Virus record (IMG/VR): IMGVR_UViG_3300022692_000031
Span: 1 to 5,945 of that record
Source: a virus
Taxonomy: Duplodnaviria > Heunggongvirae > Uroviricota > Caudoviricetes
DNA: 5,945 nucleotides
Reading direction: 5' to 3' (one strand)
Part shown: positions 1-5,945 of the stretch, piece after piece
Layout of the letters: each line of letters begins with the position of its first letter
How positions within the stretch are numbered: the stretch's first letter is position 1
Program-made: the position numbers and the translations under genes
The notes under the pieces: generated by a model
Seen by the model: only the letters and a program-made list of their open reading frames with translations
What the model was told of the DNA's origin: nothing
Databases searched by the model: none

Positions 1-105
1 GTCATAGTGACGGCACTGGTAACGAGGAAAGACCTCTGCGAGGTACGAATCCGAACCGGCCAGACGGAGGTCGCTGTTTTCACAGTCTACGAACCTGAGG
101 AGTAA
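1..105 (+). CDS. hokD: Hok-family type I membrane toxin, C-terminal part (5' end lies left of the window)
   Basis: Frame 1 from nt 1 reads VIVTALVTRKDLCEVRIRTGQTEVAVFTVYEPEE, then TAA at 103-105. This matches my recollection of the C-terminus of E. coli HokD/RelF. It is absent from the ORF track because the start is outside the window. Confidence 0.85.
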   Translation, partial: VIVTALVTRKDLCEVRIRTGQTEVAVFTVYEPEE

Positions 106-114
106 GAGTGACCT

Positions 115-142
115 GGGCGGGGTACTGATCCCATCCCCGCCC
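115..142 (+). other. GC-rich hairpin in the hok 3' UTR (8-bp stem GGGCGGGG/CCCCGCCC, 12-nt loop)
   Basis: Perfect inverted repeat read directly from the sequence. Hok-family mRNAs carry 3' fold-back structures; no T-tract follows, so it is not a terminator in itself. Confidence 0.4.
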
Positions 143-183
143 ACCTCTGATGTGTCAGGCATCCTCAATGCACCCGCACTTAA

Positions 184-208
184 CCCGCTTCGGCGGGGTT
201 TGTTTTTT
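184..208 (+). terminator. Rho-independent terminator after hok
   Basis: Stem CCCGC, loop TTCG, stem GCGGG, followed by GTTTGTTTTTT. Confidence 0.6.
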
Positions 209-279
209 CCTGGCATTCTGGTTTACAATTCGCACGTCAGCCTGAACAACTGGCACCTGCTGCGTCACCGGAGATCCCG

Positions 280-549
280 ATGGCGCACGATACCAGATTG
301 CACAATTCTGCCGACCTTGCCAGCAGGCATGGGCGGCGTTCTCACACATTCAAATCTGACTGGTTCCAGCATGACCCGTGCACTGAAGAACAGGCCGAAT
401 GGCTGATTCAGTGCTACCGCAGACGTGGTTACGAGTTTCAGAAAGATCTCAGCTTCGATCGTCGTCACTGGATAATCTCCGTCAGGCTCCCTTATTCCGA
501 ACGCCCACCGCGTCCGTCCCGCACATTCCAGCAGCGCATCTGGAGGTAA
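280..549 (+). CDS. Hypothetical small protein (89 aa); Rem-like by position between hok and the DUF968 gene
   Basis: ORF with GGAG 6 nt upstream of the ATG. Its TAA stop (547-549) abuts the GTG start of the next gene at 551, consistent with translational coupling. Assignment rests on synteny with the Qin prophage order hokD-rem-ydfU only; I do not recognise the sequence. Confidence 0.4.
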   Translation: MAHDTRLHNSADLASRHGRRSHTFKSDWFQHDPCTEEQAEWLIQCYRRRGYEFQKDLSFDRRHWIISVRLPYSERPPRPSRTFQQRIWR

Positions 550-550
550 C

Positions 551-1600
551 GTGCGGGTATTACTTCGACCTGTTCTGGTACCGGAACTCGGGATGGTGCT
601 CCTTAAGCCGGGCCGTGAATCAATGTCAGCATTCCATAACGGCAGAATATTGGTGGAGCCGGAACCGAAAAACATGCGCGGTCTGCCGTCCGGAGTCGTT
701 CCTGCCGTTCGCCAGCCGCTGGCAGAGGATAAAACATTACTGCCATTTTTCAGCGATGAGCGGGTTATTCGTGCAGCAGGTGGTGCAGGTGCACTGTCTG
801 ACTGGTTATTACGTCACGTGAAATCCTGCCAGTGGCCACACGGCGATTATCATCACAGCGAAACCGTCATTCACCGTTACGGTACCGGCGCGATGGTGTT
901 GTGCTGGCACTGTGACAACCAGCTGCGCGACCAGACATCAGAATCACTCGATCAACTTGCTCAGCAGAATCTGGCAGTCTGGATGATTGATGTTATACGT
1001 CACGCAATAAACGGTACGCAGGAGAGGGAGTTATCGCTGGCCGAATTATCCTGGTGGGCGGCCTGCAATCAGGTGGTGGATGCACTACCTGAGGCAGTAG
1101 CGCGTCGTTCGCTGGGATTACCGGTGGAAAAAATCCGCTCCGTATACCGTGAGAGTGACATCGTACCGGGAGAACAGACAGCCATCAGCATACTGAAGCA
1201 GCGCACAAAAAATATTGCGCTGCCACTTCACGTCCACCAGCAACAAAATCCACCACAGAAAAAAACGGTTGTCAGTATCGCTGTTGATCCGGAGTCTCCT
1301 GAATCGTTCATGAGGCGGCCTAAACGTCGCCGTTGGGTTAATGAGAAATACACGCGCTGGGTAAAGACACAGCCGTGTGCGTGTTGTGGTAAGCCTGCTG
1401 ACGATCCGCATCACCTGATTGGTCATGGTCAGGGGGGAATGGGGACAAAGGCCCACGATATTTTCACGCTACCGTTGTGCCGGGAGCACCACAACGAACT
1501 TCATGCAGACCCGCTGGAGTTTGAGAAAAAGTACGGCTCTCAGATTGAGTTAATTTTTCGTTTTCTTGATCACGCCTTTGCGACTGGCGTGCTCGGGTAA
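551..1600 (+). CDS. ydfU: DUF968/YdfU-like prophage protein with a C-terminal HNH-like Cys/His motif
   Basis: 349-aa ORF with GTG start and a GGAGG Shine-Dalgarno at 543-547. The C-terminus reads CACCGKPADDPHHLIGHG...LCREHHNELH, an HNH-like metal-binding arrangement. Size and position (hok, small ORF, this gene, then Q) match the Qin prophage ydfU locus; the symbol is given on synteny and size, not on a verified alignment. Confidence 0.75.
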   Translation: MRVLLRPVLVPELGMVLLKPGRESMSAFHNGRILVEPEPKNMRGLPSGVVPAVRQPLAEDKTLLPFFSDERVIRAAGGAGALSDWLLRHVKSCQWPHGDYHHSETVIHRYGTGAMVLCWHCDNQLRDQTSESLDQLAQQNLAVWMIDVIRHAINGTQERELSLAELSWWAACNQVVDALPEAVARRSLGLPVEKIRSVYRESDIVPGEQTAISILKQRTKNIALPLHVHQQQNPPQKKTVVSIAVDPESPESFMRRPKRRRWVNEKYTRWVKTQPCACCGKPADDPHHLIGHGQGGMGTKAHDIFTLPLCREHHNELHADPLEFEKKYGSQIELIFRFLDHAFATGVLG

Positions 1601-1612
1601 AAGAGGTGACTG

Positions 1613-1987
1613 ATGCTCATAGATTTGGTTTTACCTTACCCGCCGACGGTGAACACTTACTGGCGACGCCGTGGCAGCACATATTTTGTATCAAAAGCCG
1701 GGGAGCGTTATCGCCGTGCAGTGGCGCTTATTGTTCGCCAGCAGCGGCTGAAATTAAGCCTGTCCGGACGGCTGGCAATAAAAATTATTGCAGAGCCACC
1801 GGATAAGCGTCGTCGTGACCTGGACAACATTCTGAAAGCACCGCTGGATGCGCTGACGCATGCGGGACTGCTTATCGACGATGAACAGTTTGATGAAATC
1901 AATATTGTACGTGGTCAGCCAGTATCTGGTGGACGTCTGGGGGTGAAGATTTACCCCATAATGCTTGAAGGGCAGGTCAAAAAATGA
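1613..1987 (+). CDS. rusA: RusA crossover-junction endodeoxyribonuclease (Holliday junction resolvase)
   Basis: 124-aa ORF with AAGAGG 7 nt upstream of the ATG. The segment PDKRRRDLDNILKAPLDALTHAGLLIDDEQF aligns with the RusA core [31 protein letters not shown] as I remember it, including the acidic catalytic residues. Its stop overlaps the next start (ATGA at 1984-1987). Confidence 0.9.
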   Translation: MLIDLVLPYPPTVNTYWRRRGSTYFVSKAGERYRRAVALIVRQQRLKLSLSGRLAIKIIAEPPDKRRRDLDNILKAPLDALTHAGLLIDDEQFDEINIVRGQPVSGGRLGVKIYPIMLEGQVKK

Positions 1988-2805
1988 AACTGGAAGATTT
2001 ACCGAAATACTACTCCCCAAAATCCCCCGGCCTGACTGATGCATCGGCCTCAACGTCAAAAGATGCGCTGAGTATCACTGATGTGATGGCCGCGCAGGGC
2101 ATGACACAGAATCGGGCTGAGATGGGGTTTTCTGCGTTCCTTGGGAGAATGGGCATTAGTATGAATGACAGAGAGCGGGCAACAGAATTGCTGACAGAAT
2201 ATGCACTCAGTCGGTGTGATCGCGTGGCGGCGTTAAGAAAACTCCCGGCAGAAATAAAACCGGCAGTGATGCGTATTATGGCTTCGTATGCGTTTGAAGA
2301 TTATGCCCGTAGCGCGGCGAGCAAAAAACAGTGCCCCTGCTGTCACGGAAAAAAATTTATTGAAAGCGAGGTTTTTACAAACAAGATCCAGTATCCGGAT
2401 GGTAAGCCGCCAGTGTGGGCAAAGTGCACAAAAGGCGTGTATCCGTCTTACTGGGAGGAATGGAAAAAAGTCAGGGAGGTGGTAAAAGTTGCCTGTCCGG
2501 AGTGTGGCGGAAAGGGGGAGGTTTCCACCGCCTGTAAAGATTGTCGTGGGCGCGGTGTTGCCATTCATCGTGAAGAGTCGGAAAAACAGGGTGTGCCGGT
2601 TTTCAGAAACTGTCAGCGTTGTGGTGGGCGTGGCTATGAAAGATTACCTTCAACGGAGGCATTTAATGCCATATGTAATGTAACCGATGCCATATCTCTT
2701 GATACATGGAAAAAAACAGTTAAACGTTTTTACGATACGCTGGTGGTGCAGTTTGATATTGAAGAAGCATGGGCAGAACAACAACTGAAAAAGGTGACCA
2801 GATAG
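1984..2805 (+). CDS. Q-type late-gene antiterminator (QuuQ-like) with DnaJ-type CxxCxGxG zinc-finger repeats
   Basis: 273-aa ORF in the canonical position after rusA and before a promoter-terminator unit. It contains the repeats CPECGGKG, CKDCRGRG and CQRCGGRG plus CPCCHGKK. Size and cysteine repeats fit the large Qin-type Q family from memory. Confidence 0.7.
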   Translation: MKLEDLPKYYSPKSPGLTDASASTSKDALSITDVMAAQGMTQNRAEMGFSAFLGRMGISMNDRERATELLTEYALSRCDRVAALRKLPAEIKPAVMRIMASYAFEDYARSAASKKQCPCCHGKKFIESEVFTNKIQYPDGKPPVWAKCTKGVYPSYWEEWKKVREVVKVACPECGGKGEVSTACKDCRGRGVAIHREESEKQGVPVFRNCQRCGGRGYERLPSTEAFNAICNVTDAISLDTWKKTVKRFYDTLVVQFDIEEAWAEQQLKKVTR

Positions 2806-2810
2806 CTTTG

Positions 2811-2838
2811 TTGATTTTTCCCGAATCTGTGGTAAATT
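2811..2838 (+). promoter_or_regulatory. Candidate late promoter PR' (-35 TTGATT, 16-bp spacer, extended -10 TGgTAAATT)
   Basis: Sigma-70-like hexamers read directly, immediately downstream of the Q stop and about 50 nt upstream of the terminator at 2888-2909. This is the expected PR'-tR' arrangement of lambdoid late control. Confidence 0.35.
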
Positions 2839-2887
2839 TGCCCTAACGATGGGCGTTTTATGCCTGACGTTAGAAGATTTTTTACAC

Positions 2888-2909
2888 CCCGCCGCCTGGC
2901 GGGTTTTTT
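2888..2909 (+). terminator. Rho-independent terminator, candidate tR'
   Basis: Stem CCCGCC, loop GCCT, stem GGCGGG, followed by TTTTTTAT. Confidence 0.6.
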
Positions 2910-3031
2910 ATGACTGAAATCGCGTCAGTACAGTAAACGCGCTGGTGGCGGTGAATACCGGTCTTTCAGCTTGCTGGCTTTTTTGACAAGAGTTATTGGT
3001 GTGTCACGTTAACCGAAAAAGGGAAAAAGAC

Positions 3032-3229
3032 ATGCTGAAACAGCAGGATATGACAGAAACTGCCAGAGCAGTGTTTAATGAATTAAGCGTCACCGAACCG
3101 GCGACAGTCGGGGAGATTGCGCAGAATACTTACCTTTCACGCGAACGCTGCCAGTTAATACTGACCCAGCTTGTTATGGCGGGTCTGGCAGACTATCAGT
3201 TCGGTTGTTACAGACGCCTTCGGTCCTGA
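3032..3229 (+). CDS. Small (65 aa) putative winged-helix DNA-binding protein, PapI/FaeA-like pattern
   Basis: ATG at 3032 preceded by a purine-rich AAGGGAAAAAG. The segment TVGEIAQNTYLSRERCQLILTQLVMAGL resembles the helix-turn-helix region of the small PapI/FaeA family (compare [28 protein letters not shown]) from memory. Confidence 0.5.
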   Translation: MLKQQDMTETARAVFNELSVTEPATVGEIAQNTYLSRERCQLILTQLVMAGLADYQFGCYRRLRS

Positions 3230-3240
3230 AGGCTTTTTTA
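3216..3240 (+). terminator. Strong Rho-independent terminator overlapping the stop codon of the small ORF
   Basis: Perfect stem GCCTTC/GAAGGC with loop GGTCCT, followed by TTTTTTATTT. The TGA stop at 3227-3229 lies inside the hairpin. Confidence 0.65.
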
Positions 3241-3242
3241 TT

Positions 3243-3252
3243 TGTGGTAAAT
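3243..3252 (+). promoter_or_regulatory. Second copy of the 10-mer TGTGGTAAAT (extended -10-like element)
   Basis: The same 10-mer occurs at 2828-2837 inside the PR' candidate. This copy sits just after the terminator and upstream of the methyltransferase gene. Confidence 0.25.
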
Positions 3253-3328
3253 GGGCGGCTGGTGGGTGTTAGGGGCACTCACCAGCCATCTGCTCATGCG
3301 TCTGGATCACAAGCAAACCTCAGGCCCA

Positions 3329-3347
3329 CTGCTTTGCGCAAAAGCAG
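3329..3347 (+). promoter_or_regulatory. Near-perfect dyad CTGCTTTGCGCAAAAGCAG about 35 bp upstream of the methyltransferase start
   Basis: Inverted repeat read directly from the sequence, with 7-bp arms and one unpaired A. It could be an operator or an RNA hairpin. Confidence 0.3.
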
Positions 3348-3379
3348 AATGAGCCTATCAGAGACAGGCTTAATGATCC

Positions 3380-4438
3380 ATGCTTAACACTGTAAAAATA
3401 TCCAGTTGTGAGTTAATCAACGCCGACTGCCTGGAATTTATCCGGTCGTTACCCGAAAATTCTGTTGACCTGATAGTCACGGATCCGCCGTACTTTAAAG
3501 TGAAGCCTGAGGGCTGGGATAACCAGTGGAAGGGCGACGATGATTACCTGAAGTGGCTGGACCAGTGTCTTGCGCAGTTCTGGCGGGTGCTGAAACCTGC
3601 CGGAAGTCTTTACCTGTTCTGTGGCCATCGCCTGGCATCTGACATTGAAATCATGATGCGTGAACGCTTCAGTGTGCTGAACCATATTATCTGGGCGAAG
3701 CCGTCCGGACGCTGGAACGGGTGCAACAAGGAAAGCCTGAGGGCGTATTTCCCCGCCACAGAGCGCATTCTGTTCGCGGAACATTATCAGGGGCCGTATC
3801 GTCCGAAAGATGCCGGGTATGAGGCGAAGGGCAGGGCACTGAAACAGCATGTGATGGCACCGCTGATTGCTTACTTTCGTGATGCGCGTGCTGCCCTGGG
3901 GATAACGGCAAAACAGATTGCTGATGCCACAGGAAAGAAAAACATGGTGTCGCACTGGTTCAGTGCCAGTCAGTGGCAGTTACCGAACGAAAGCGATTAT
4001 CTGAAATTACAGGTGCTGTTTGCCCGGGTGGCAGAAGAGAAGCATCAGCGGGGTGAACTGGAAAAGCCCCACCACCAGCTGCTGGAGACGTATACTTCAC
4101 TGAACCGGCAGTATGCGGAACTGCAGAGTGAATATAAGCATCTGCGGCGGTATTTTGGCGTGACGGCGCAGGTGCCGTACACGGATGTGTGGACGCATAA
4201 ACCGGTGCAGTACTATCCCGGGAAACATCCGTGCGAAAAACCGGCAGAAATGCTGCAGCAGATAATCAGCGCGAGCAGTCGTCCGGGTGACCTGGTTGCA
4301 GATTTTTTCATGGGGTCGGGTTCGACAGTCAAAGCCGCGATGGCGCTGGGGCGGCGTGCAACTGGCGTTGAGCTGGAGACTGAACGTTTTGAGCAGACGG
4401 TCAGAGAAGTTCAGGATTTAGTCAGTCAGAACGGATGA
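3380..4438 (+). CDS. DNA methyltransferase, beta-class amino-methyltransferase (probably N6-adenine), with no restriction partner in the window
   Basis: 352-aa ORF. The catalytic motif IV DPPY (LIVTDPPYF) is near the N-terminus and the SAM-binding motif I FxGxG (DFFMGSGST) near the C-terminus, the beta-class order seen in CcrM, HinfI and RsrI methyltransferases. Confidence 0.9.
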   Translation: MLNTVKISSCELINADCLEFIRSLPENSVDLIVTDPPYFKVKPEGWDNQWKGDDDYLKWLDQCLAQFWRVLKPAGSLYLFCGHRLASDIEIMMRERFSVLNHIIWAKPSGRWNGCNKESLRAYFPATERILFAEHYQGPYRPKDAGYEAKGRALKQHVMAPLIAYFRDARAALGITAKQIADATGKKNMVSHWFSASQWQLPNESDYLKLQVLFARVAEEKHQRGELEKPHHQLLETYTSLNRQYAELQSEYKHLRRYFGVTAQVPYTDVWTHKPVQYYPGKHPCEKPAEMLQQIISASSRPGDLVADFFMGSGSTVKAAMALGRRATGVELETERFEQTVREVQDLVSQNG

Positions 4439-4478
4439 TATTGCAGGATTAGTTACGTACCGTTATTATCCTGCGCCC

Positions 4479-4554
4479 GGCCCTTTAGCTCAGTGGTGAG
4501 AGCGAGCGACTCATAATCGCCAGGTCGCTGGTTCAAATCCAGCAAGGGCCACCA
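4479..4554 (+). tRNA. tRNA with anticodon CAU, ileX/ileZ-like (tRNA-Ile2, lysidine type; an anticodon-only caller would say Met)
   Basis: Manually folded 76-nt cloverleaf: acceptor GGCCCTT/AAGGGCC, D-stem GCTC/GAGC, anticodon loop CTCATAA, T-arm GCTGG-TTCAAAT-CCAGC, encoded CCA. The overall sequence closely resembles E. coli ileX as I remember it. Confidence 0.85.
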
Positions 4555-4563
4555 TATCACATA

Positions 4564-4640
4564 CCGCCATTAGCTCATCGGGATAGAGCGCCAGCCTTCG
4601 AAGCTGGCTGCGCGGGGTTCGAGTCCTCGATGGCGGTCCA
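4564..4640 (+). tRNA. tRNA-Arg, anticodon UCG
   Basis: Manually folded 77-nt cloverleaf: acceptor CCGCCAT/ATGGCGG, D-stem GCTC/GAGC, anticodon stem CCAGC/GCTGG with loop CTTCGAA, T-arm CGGGG-TTCGAGT-CCTCG, encoded CCA. The 5' C1 is unusual but pairs with G72. Confidence 0.75.
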
Positions 4641-4696
4641 TTATCTGCATTATGCGTTGTTGGTTCTGATGAGTGAATCATTGTCTTTTGAGCAAC

Positions 4697-4718
4697 AGGC
4701 TATCATATAAGATAGCCT
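4697..4718 (+). other. Perfect 8-bp inverted repeat AGGCTATC-ATATAA-GATAGCCT downstream of the tRNAs
   Basis: Read directly from the sequence. No immediate T-tract; it may be a processing or regulatory hairpin or a protein-binding dyad. Confidence 0.3.
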
Positions 4719-4918
4719 CAGACTTCCTTGTTTATTCTCGCCGGATGCTTCGTAGATATTTGCAGGCATCTGTATGCAGGGGTATTATTGCGGCATATAT
4801 CATCCGGAAAAATAAAAACTACATGCTGATCCGGAGATGATAGTTACAAGTCCTCCCGGATCCCGCATATTTACTATATTTTATAGATAATTGTTCTTGT
4901 TAATATGGAGATGGATAA

Positions 4919-5347
4919 ATGTATTGCCGTGCTGTACCGGTTCTTGTTTTGATATTAGCCAGTCTGACAACTGGCTGCACAAAAGATGTATCGACAAATA
5001 ATCATGATGCTTCTCTGTATCACTCAGATAAATTAATAAAGTCGCAAAATTTGAGCTCATCGGAACGTACCCCTGATGCCAGTGAAGAAATCCGGCAGTA
5101 TGCCATTCAGGTCAGGAAAGCCATAGAAGAACAGTTAAAGGATGCGAGTAAGTATTCAGGAAAAGAGTGTTCACTGAGAATGTATATGGCCCCGAATGGT
5201 CTTCTGCTACAGGTTAAAAGAGAAAGCGGTGATCCCGATTTATGTCGTGAAGCGATGAATGCAGTAAAGAATGCTGATATACCATCACCACCGTCTTCAG
5301 GAGTATATAAAGCATTTAGAAATGGCGTGCTGGATTTTAAACTCTGA
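4919..5347 (+). CDS. Putative secreted lipoprotein homologous to TolA C-terminal domain III
   Basis: 142-aa ORF with GGAG 8 nt upstream of the ATG. The N-terminus has a hydrophobic signal (AVPVLVLILASL) followed by LTTGC, a lipobox-like cysteine. Residues about 60-142 align at roughly 50 percent identity with my recollection of the E. coli TolA C-terminus (YAGQIKSAIESKFYDASSYAGKTCTLRIKLAPDGMLLDIKPEGGDPALCQAALAAAKLAKIPKPPSQAVYEVFKNAPLDFKP), including both cysteines. Confidence 0.8.
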   Translation: MYCRAVPVLVLILASLTTGCTKDVSTNNHDASLYHSDKLIKSQNLSSSERTPDASEEIRQYAIQVRKAIEEQLKDASKYSGKECSLRMYMAPNGLLLQVKRESGDPDLCREAMNAVKNADIPSPPSSGVYKAFRNGVLDFKL

Positions 5348-5350
5348 CAG

Positions 5351-5380
5351 GGGGAGAAGATTTTCTCCTGTCCTGATGAT
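5351..5380 (+). terminator. Weak terminator-like hairpin just after the lipoprotein stop
   Basis: Stem GGAGAA, loop GATT, stem TTCTCC, followed by TGTCCTGATGATTTTGG. Imperfect T-tract. Confidence 0.3.
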
Positions 5381-5636
5381 TTTGGGGCGCTGGAAAGATA
5401 TTGTGCTGTGAAGTGTTAAATCCCTCACAATTCAGTAAGTTGACAGTTGCCTGTCAGACTGAGCATTTGTTAAAAAAATTTCGCATGGTGAATCCCCCTG
5501 TGCGGAGGGGCGACTGGTGAACGGTATGATCTCTTTGATGATCGTAAGCGAGAATACGCGGGTTTGGTGTCACCGGGCTGAACTCACCGGGAGGCACCCG
5601 GCACCATGCTCATGGTGATACAGAAATGCGGCTTCA

Positions 5637-5660
5637 GCCCCTCTCCGGAGGGGCTTTCTT
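5637..5660 (+). terminator. Rho-independent terminator for + strand transcripts
   Basis: Stem GCCCCTC, loop TCCG, stem GAGGGGC, followed by TTTCTT. Confidence 0.5.
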
Positions 5661-5666
5661 ATGGAC

Positions 5667-5695
5667 AAAAAAAGCCCGCGCTGGGAGACGCGGGC
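5667..5695 (-). terminator. Rho-independent terminator for - strand transcripts
   Basis: On the - strand this reads GCCCGCG-TCTCCCAG-CGCGGGC followed by seven T. With the + strand terminator 7 bp to its left it forms a convergent pair. Confidence 0.55.
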
Positions 5696-5814
5696 GGCAA
5701 GGAATAAACAATAAAACGTGAAGTAATACTTCAACTGGCGAATAATACCCGACAGTAATCACTCTGCGCAATAGCGTGGCCTTTTTCGAATTGCGGGCTG
5801 TAGTCTCCCTTCTG

Positions 5815-5945
5815 CCGGGTGTCCTGGTTGCAGATTTCTTCATGGGGTAGGGTTCGGCAGTTAAAGCAGCGATGGCGCTGGGGCGTCGTGCAACTGGCGT
5901 TGAGCTGGATACCGGGCGTTTTGAACAGACTGCGCAGGAAATCAG
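5815..5945 (+). pseudogene. Decayed 3' fragment of a second DNA methyltransferase gene (runs past the window edge)
   Basis: About 130 nt are roughly 85-90 percent identical to the 3' end of the intact methyltransferase gene (4283-4418). In the equivalent frame, motif I reads FMG-stop-GSA because TAG at 5848-5850 replaces TCG; there is no upstream coding sequence or start. Confidence 0.75.

Follow-up and report, generated by a model that had tools for sequence, protein, structure and literature searches.

A small winged-helix gene and an M.EcoGII-type adenine methyltransferase gene form a frequent but not obligate pair behind the late promoter of a lambdoid Escherichia coli prophage

The late-regulatory region of a lambdoid Escherichia coli prophage was recognised by gene calls, Pfam, Rfam and a transfer RNA (tRNA) scan in a stretch of 5,945 nucleotides (nt) of Caudoviricetes DNA (IMG/VR record IMGVR_UViG_3300022692_000031, positions 1 to 5,945; hereafter the window). 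It holds a short open reading frame (ORF) for a winged-helix protein directly upstream of a DNA methyltransferase gene (Table 1). Its sequence marks the methyltransferase as an orthologue of M.EcoGII, an E. coli prophage enzyme that acts on N6 of adenine without sequence specificity (PMC5778455), and the linkage of its gene to the small ORF is frequent but not obligate. The explanation to which we give a little better than an even chance is that a known M.EcoGII-type enzyme sits in the moron slot of the late promoter pR', where it would depend on the antiterminator Q and act against restriction, and that the small ORF is a separate accessory unit. This explanation draws on the identities of the genes, the predicted fold of the small protein, the linkage statistics and the covariation of an RNA leader, all demonstrated here. 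A first-pass annotation, made from the letters of the window, had already placed the two genes next to each other in a late operon; the coordinates of both were confirmed, and the placement agrees with a Q gene ending at 2805 and a lambda-like pR' 3' of it.

Pfam family PF01555 spans residues 29-340 of the methyltransferase, with 151 bits against a cut-off of 26.7. The DPPY of the catalytic motif IV (residues 35-38, nt 3482-3493) lies N-terminal to the FxGxG of motif I, which binds S-adenosylmethionine and is here FMGSG (residues 310-314, nt 4307-4321), with the target-recognition domain (TRD) in between, as is characteristic of the beta class. The solved relatives M.RsrI, CcrM and MboIIA align in two blocks on either side of the insert. 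When compared with M.EcoGII, 330 of 349 residues were identical over the full length including the central domain (95%, which is a lower bound with some noise, as the reference was the machine-read PDF Table S1 of PMC11551740). Residues 1-190 were nearly unchanged, while the 19 substitutions fell chiefly in residues 211-275 and the C-terminal tail, and the window enzyme has 3 additional residues. Because of this full-length identity the enzyme is regarded, at the level of sequence, as the M.EcoGII orthologue, with the non-specific activity taken from the published work. M.EcoGII and M.EcoGI of E. coli O104:H4 C227-11 (Murray et al. 2018, PMC5778455) share the DPPY-TRD-FxGxG order and the prophage setting of the window enzyme; the upstream ORF and the leader are not discussed in that paper. 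It names phage 1720a-02, to which the window DNA is 97.5% identical, as the carrier of a very similar enzyme, and describes M.EcoGII as part of a very large family.

According to the same study, M.EcoGII is silent in the lysogen and deleterious under constitutive expression (PMC5778455), and it has been grouped with Mom, both being toxic and both silent in lysogens (PMC12707154). The non-specific activity, the silence in lysogens and the toxicity are thus the parts of our explanation that derive from the literature. Protection of progeny DNA from restriction, which the first-pass annotation had kept as a fallback, agrees with the published view of M.EcoGII (PMC5778455, PMC12707154). In the published architecture, residues 1-134 and 260-349 form a Rossmann domain and residues 160-237 a four-helix-bundle recognition domain with a helix-turn-helix (HTH), to which a charged two-helix linker is added (PMC11551740). 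The insert of the window enzyme is probably of the same type, with a four-helix target-recognition domain and a charged helical linker; a single-sequence AlphaFold2 model of the methyltransferase (pLDDT, a predicted value of the local distance difference test, 42) was too poor to read the architecture of the insert. The order of motif IV before motif I, with a long, partly coiled-coil insert between them, had been called a distinctive architecture. That order defines the beta class and the insert is probably the described recognition domain and linker (PMC11551740). Placing the locus in the M.EcoGII family settles the earlier question. No endonuclease was present among the window genes, where the neighbours are DUF968, RusA, Q, the tRNAs and a TolA_C-like ORF, as had been claimed, or in the related loci checked.

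The same two-gene module is visible in published phage genomes as orf47-orf48 of the Shigella phage SfV, where flanking terminators are annotated, L23-L24 of the Stx2e phage phiP27 and 052-053 of mEp460, in each case with Q on one side and the lysis genes or stx on the other. Neither the enzyme nor its setting is new. These phages differ from the window in Q type and downstream cargo, and the small-ORF allele of mEp460 and of an Stx2c phage is only about 50% identical. Among close relatives in viral contigs, the methyltransferase followed the small ORF in 128 of 135 cases, and the small ORF preceded the methyltransferase in 139 of 140. A diverse set, with one genome per species and found by a scan with an alignment of divergent enzymes, comprised 78 Enterobacterales loci with enzyme identities of 62-96%. 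The small ORF was located 116-176 nt upstream of the enzyme in 55 of these 78 loci, and the co-occurrence across prophages that had been proposed for checking therefore extends well beyond close relatives, though it is not obligate. The pair was kept at small-ORF identities of 41% and 51%, always 3' of Q, with differing Q families.

An intact enzyme without the small ORF was found in 23 of the 78 loci (29%). Complete E. coli genomes contained 4059 small-ORF places compared with 3250 methyltransferase places, about 800 more, and some E. coli prophages have other cargo 3' of the small ORF, namely an ORF of either about 650 or 237 residues; by eye the former looks NanS-p-like and the latter AraC-like. 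The alleles of the two genes were also reshuffled. In an Stx2c phage the small ORF is 48% and the enzyme 88% identical, in mEp460 the values are 52% and 81%, and elsewhere small ORFs of 84-86% identity precede enzymes of 73%. Compared with one another, variant loci lose homology at 3269-3283, which lies between the two genes. This segment is a recurrent recombination junction inside the first hairpin of the leader (loci L013, L025, L062, L066, L081 and L157), at which the small-ORF unit joins varied cargo and the methyltransferase unit joins varied upstream DNA. Loci L178 and L182, which have the methyltransferase and no winged-helix ORF, carry a cysteine-rich ORF of zinc-ribbon type (79 residues, about 3058-3297) 5' of the leader.

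The small ORF is regarded as a real gene because it has a ribosome-binding site, because 60% of the single-base codon differences among 57 distinct homologues were synonymous, indicating purifying selection, and because third positions were the most variable. AlphaFold2, run with an alignment of 16 sequences, confidently predicted a minimal winged helix (pLDDT 92.4) with helices at residues 9-16, 26-33 and 37-49 and a beta hairpin at 53-62. The recognition helix contains an invariant L-T-Q. Foldseek matches were generic, comprising MarR/OhrR (template modelling score 0.81), IclR, the N-terminal winged helices of S-adenosylmethionine (SAM)-dependent O-methyltransferases and SelB, with none at E <= 1e-3, and Pfam gave only sub-threshold matches to TrmB, DprA_WH and MarR_2. 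The family is narrow: its homologues fall into 340 clusters at 90% identity, and 1.84 billion proteins contained 63 representatives of it. Every named homologue is from Enterobacterales, and all loci examined were prophages. The literature searched contained no account of what the small ORF does, of the motif upstream of it or of the covarying leader. Lambda orf-64 (lambda 44621-44815, 64 residues) has a similar size and an equivalent place between pR' and tR'; its sequence is unrelated by eye. A further ORF of 60 residues at 3205-3387 was rejected as spurious, as it matched no family and the RNA leader accounts for its conservation.

The spacer of about 150 nt 5' of the enzyme is conserved as a whole across genera (54 loci aligned), and its leader gave a fold of -63.5 kcal/mol in the window sequence (z = -4.89), a stability reached by 0 of 200 shuffles. 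The structure was assigned to the + strand, that is to the messenger RNA (mRNA) of the methyltransferase, because G.U pairs are abundant. It consists of SL1 (3251-3268/3275-3297) and the helices 3289-3294/3312-3317, 3305-3309/3374-3378 and 3311-3315/3367-3371. Covariation was scored on a hand-drawn structure over the 54-sequence alignment, using 500 shuffles and slid controls for comparison. Cells were paired in 91%, compared with 88.9% in the shuffles (0 of 500 reached the observed value) and 29-45% in the slid controls. Fourteen pairs changed on both sides, while the shuffles gave 5.6 +/- 1.4 (0 of 500 reached 14) and the slid controls 4-8. In the first hairpin (3257-3268/3275-3287) compensatory changes occurred in 8 of 11 pairs. 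In the helix 3289-3294/3312-3317, alignment pair 60-84 was CG 29 times, AU 11, UA 9 and UG 4, with none unpaired, and the base helix of SL1 (3251-3256/3292-3297) was 99.7% paired and varied through G.U pairs only. These two helices compete for the same bases and are therefore, as far as the alignment can tell, mutually exclusive, alternative conformations. The long-range helix 3305-3309/3374-3378 ends 1 nt 5' of the AUG of the methyltransferase, which has no Shine-Dalgarno sequence and is paired in the minimum-energy fold. Rfam had no match in the leader (3230-3380) at E <= 1.

The first-pass annotation had pointed to a dyad at 3329-3347 through which the small protein might control the methyltransferase. 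The dyad exists as an inverted repeat and forms the apex of a hairpin of the leader. Taken alone it is within chance, as such a repeat occurred in 8.9% of dinucleotide shuffles of the 150-nt spacer. For the most part the hairpin does not vary between genera, and a few lineages show compensatory changes (alignment columns 103-113, UA 50 and GC 4; columns 99-117, UA 22, CG 5 and UG 4). The leader was present in 50 of the 78 diverse loci, irrespective of the small ORF: 30 loci had both, 20 the leader only, 25 the small ORF with a different, shorter leader, and 3 neither. Its consensus did not depend on the presence of the small ORF, and every segment kept its conservation where the ORF was absent. 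Because of this equal conservation neither the dyad nor the leader as a whole is likely to be an operator of the small protein, and control through the dyad was abandoned.

In phage Mu, mom encodes a toxic, broadly adenine-modifying enzyme which is expressed late and is silent in the lysogen, and its start is occluded by mRNA structure; the small com gene upstream overlaps mom and encodes a zinc-finger protein. The module of the window bears a striking resemblance to com-mom in having a small ORF 5' of a toxic enzyme whose start is occluded by mRNA structure, silence and occlusion being presumed here. It differs in that the small protein is a winged helix, that a terminator and about 150 nt lie between its gene and that of the enzyme, and that many loci do without it. 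With two cysteines only (C40 and C59) and no CxxC pairs, it does not have the zinc finger of Com. The C proteins of type II restriction-modification systems are likewise small DNA-binding proteins encoded beside a methyltransferase; these are of the Xre-type HTH, bind palindromic C-boxes and time the endonuclease, whereas here a winged helix (not HTH_3) and a non-palindromic motif are found, and no endonuclease. The small protein might serve specifically to control the methyltransferase, binding the leader either as RNA in the manner of Com or as DNA in the manner of a C protein and so turning translation or transcription of the toxic enzyme on or off; this is in our judgement unlikely. Its position upstream of the enzyme in 55 loci would fit such a role, as would the toxicity of the enzyme and its silence in lysogens (PMC5778455, PMC12707154), a leader with a paired start codon, no Shine-Dalgarno sequence and two switch-like exclusive helices that fit the alignment, and a fold which includes RNA binders, SelB being among the matches. 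However, the leader keeps the same consensus in the 20 loci that have an intact enzyme ORF and no small ORF, the small ORF occurs with a different leader in 25, and loci of the Proteus type keep the small ORF but have a plain Shine-Dalgarno sequence and no leader. The alleles of the two genes reshuffle freely, and the small protein has neither a zinc-finger motif nor an Xre-type HTH nor a net charge. As the conservation of the leader is independent of the small ORF, the Com-like model is weakened.

The small protein could also be a subunit that alters the substrate choice of the enzyme. In Stx2a phages the winged-helix protein PNB-2 is encoded just 5' of the phage methyltransferase M.EcoPA8orf6770P, forms a 1:1 complex with it and confers a preference for 16S ribosomal RNA (rRNA) (Gong et al. 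2023, PMC10810198). The arrangement is like that of the window, RNA methylation is within the ability of M.EcoGII, the top fold matches of the small protein include winged-helix dimerisation domains of SAM-dependent methyltransferases, and its neutral charge would suit a protein-binding role. PNB-2 differs in lacking sequence homology (pairwise E = 0.22, by which the small ORF was rejected as a homologue), in its length of 143 residues, in its partner, which is an MT-A70 enzyme (PF05063) and not of PF01555, and in its location in the early region near the integrase gene. Moreover, M.EcoGII needs no partner for full activity and its characterisation did not include the small ORF (PMC5778455), the small ORF is absent from 29% of the diverse enzyme loci, a terminator separates the two genes, no fused forms occurred among the 340 homologue clusters, and the reshuffling of alleles speaks against a co-evolving interface. 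A subunit of this kind is therefore considered quite improbable.

The first-pass annotation had described the small protein as PapI/FaeA-like and had suggested that it acts with Lrp at methylation-sensitive sites set by the enzyme, as an epigenetic switch. The winged helix was borne out by the model, and a winged helix is also the fold of the small PapI/FaeA proteins (PF04703). The kinship was not: Pfam gave no FaeA match at E <= 1, either for the window protein or for the 16 family members, PapI gave no PDB sequence-profile match, and it was absent from the top 50 Foldseek matches. The setting is also a phage late operon instead of an Lrp-bound fimbrial control region. A conserved GATC at 3375, 2 nt 5' of the methyltransferase start, would fit such a switch; it is the single conserved GATC of the spacer and is one strand of an RNA helix, while the GATC at 3305 is not conserved, most loci having GGTCAC. 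In addition, a non-specific enzyme made only in the lytic cycle could not maintain a heritable site-specific pattern, to judge from the properties reported for M.EcoGII (PMC5778455). With the family match missing and the conserved GATC belonging to an RNA helix, an epigenetic switch of the PapI type appears hardly credible.

The elements flanking the small ORF suggest a separate unit. The motif upstream of it had one exact match in the window, where 0 were expected (200 shuffles). It occurred once per locus and at the same distance in nearly all small-ORF loci, including other genera and alleles of 41-52% protein identity, and was missing from methyltransferase loci without the small ORF, so that it travels only with the small ORF. 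As the site and the recognition helix are both invariant, the protein may regulate its own gene, or the site may be a dedicated promoter or operator. A TTGACA at 2984-2989 was rejected as the -35 element of the small ORF, as it lies within the variable N12, is not conserved and has no usable -10. The idea that the motif forms an RNA hairpin, or that it pairs with codons 4-6, was likewise rejected, as inspection revealed no consistent complementarity across loci. The small ORF is bracketed by two strong terminator-like hairpins with T-runs, at 2888-2909 and 3216-3239. A hairpin at the position of the second, just 5' of the leader, was present in most loci, whether they have the small ORF or not, and its T-run is weak in many.

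Taking the M.EcoGII-type enzyme as moron cargo and the small ORF as an accessory unit, the region would work as follows. The cargo lies just 3' of a lambdoid prophage's late promoter, which would depend on Q. In the lysogen the enzyme would be kept off by the two terminators and by a leader that lacks a Shine-Dalgarno sequence and pairs the start; upon induction, RNA polymerase would read through under the influence of Q. Two terminators and a start-occluding leader would together mean that the enzyme is made only under Q antitermination. It would then methylate N6 of adenines in any sequence context, and the broadly methylated progeny DNA would escape adenine-sensitive restriction in the next host. 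The small ORF would be a self-contained unit with its own upstream motif, ribosome-binding site and terminator, usually travelling ahead of the methyltransferase, which would not depend on it. The small protein is most likely a nucleic-acid-binding regulator acting at its own upstream motif, and any effect on the methyltransferase would be accessory. The Q dependence, the translational occlusion, the anti-restriction role and the target of the small protein are what we infer.

Several observations weigh against this explanation. The adjacency of the two genes in fixed order, down to a small-ORF identity of 41% and across several genera and Q types, exceeds the obvious prediction of a shared slot, and some functional tie between the small ORF and the methyltransferase may exist. 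The small protein has no net charge (7 K+R and 7 D+E), which is unusual for a small DNA binder. Its upstream motif contains neither a recognisable sigma-70 promoter nor a palindrome, and the role of the motif and its binding by the small protein are guesses. Native M.EcoGII might instead be a regulated and possibly targeted methylase, governed by a leader switch that gates translation and by the small protein as a modulator, although we consider this a minor possibility. Such a modulator might relieve the block by the leader, restrict or retarget the enzyme, or read or shield DNA marked by N6-methyladenine.

The surroundings of the module are those of a pR' region. Transcription from pR' probably starts near 2845. 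The sequence 2831-2853 (ggtaaatttgccctaacgatggg) equals the -10 and pause region of lambda pR' (ggtaaatttgactcaacgatggg) at 20 of 23 bases, and the roles of these elements of lambda pR' as promoter and pause site are well established. The core of the promoter is lambda-like (-10 TAAATT and the AACGATGGG pause element) although Q belongs to another Pfam family than lambda Q. The pR' block was also found in a Pantoea prophage with the same Q family. A hairpin with a T-run comparable to the first terminator follows pR' in loci with other Q types, and the record of phage SfV has the tR'-like site annotated as a terminator. In the window this terminator lies about 45-65 nt past the putative start of pR', so that a short pR' RNA would be expected in the lysogen, which we take to be analogous to the 6S RNA of lambda or the StxS small RNA (sRNA) of Stx phages.

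Downstream of the methyltransferase the two tRNA genes match the position of ileZ and an arg tRNA ahead of stx in Stx phages; no stx follows them in the window. Their phiP27 counterparts are annotated ileZ and argO, and in that phage the same two genes and tRNAs are immediately 5' of stx2e. The TolA_C-like ORF, in DNA rich in A and T (GC about 0.40-0.45), has the look of a moron of its own. It is recognised that morons insert at the pR' slot, and convergent prophage sRNAs have been described in this moron region (Tree et al. 2014, PMC4104026); the STnc100 match of the window falls 3' of the cargo genes, within the region treated there. In related loci the module is followed by lysis genes or stx, and the closest genome record has the same gene order and then lysis genes. 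The order of Q, small ORF, methyltransferase and lysis genes or stx was repeated in phiP27, SfV, mEp460, Pantoea, Salmonella and other prophages with differing Q families. Positions 2806-4478 were found in 2466 of 5426 complete E. coli genomes, at up to 10 places per genome, and in 255 phage records, mainly of Stx2 phages.

Table 1. Features of the window in the late-regulatory region (positions in nt; all on the + strand).
Feature	Position	Strand	Basis and details
DUF968 protein	551-1600	+	Pfam
RusA	1613-1987	+	Pfam
Q antiterminator, 273 residues	1984-2805	+	Pfam PF03589 Antiterm, E 3.8e-51; RefSeq homologue named 'antitermination protein'
Late promoter pR'	2811-2853	+	-35 TTGATT 2811-2816; -10 TAAATT 2833-2838; promoter-proximal pause element AACGAT+GGG 2845-2853
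First intrinsic terminator (tR'-like)	2888-2909	+	Terminator scan; CCCGCCGCCTGGCGGG then TTTTTT; 6 G-C pairs
Invariant motif CTTGCTG-N12-AGAGYTA	2970-2995	+	62 nt 5' of small-ORF start; candidate operator/promoter of small ORF
Winged-helix protein, 65 residues (small ORF)	3032-3229	+	phrog_331 (PHROGs label: function unknown); ribosome-binding site AGGGA 3020-3024, 7 nt 5' of ATG
Second intrinsic terminator	3216-3239	+	Terminator scan; GCCTTCGGTCCTGAAGGC then TTTTTT; overlaps last codons and stop of small ORF
Structured mRNA leader, roughly 130 nt	3249-3379	+	54-locus alignment, covariation, folding
Hairpin with dyad as apex	3323-3355	+	Dyad CTGCTTT/AAAGCAG 3329-3335/3341-3347
M.EcoGII-family beta-class N6-adenine DNA methyltransferase, 352 residues	3380-4438	+	Sequence identity, Pfam
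tRNA genes, anticodons CAT and TCG	4479-4554 and 4564-4640	+	ARAGORN, Rfam; same operon, downstream of methyltransferase
TolA_C-like ORF, 142 residues	4919-5347	+	PF06519, E 5.7e-23; phrog_5772
STnc100 sRNA-family match	5454-5666	+	Rfam, 172 bits against gathering score 47

Of 5426 complete E. coli genomes, 2007 (about 37%) carry the M.EcoGII family, frequently as several copies, and in many Shiga-toxin phages it adjoins stx. M.EcoGII is also a commercial enzyme that is widely used for chromatin and RNA footprinting, and it has so far been studied only out of its phage context. If the leader and the small protein do govern it, the native system would be regulated and possibly targeted, and not indiscriminate. 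The terminators, the leader and the conserved but dispensable small ORF are testable candidates for the silencing and release of a toxic enzyme. In phages such as phiP27 the module shares its late transcript with stx, and toxin expression may therefore be affected by its terminators and leader as well.

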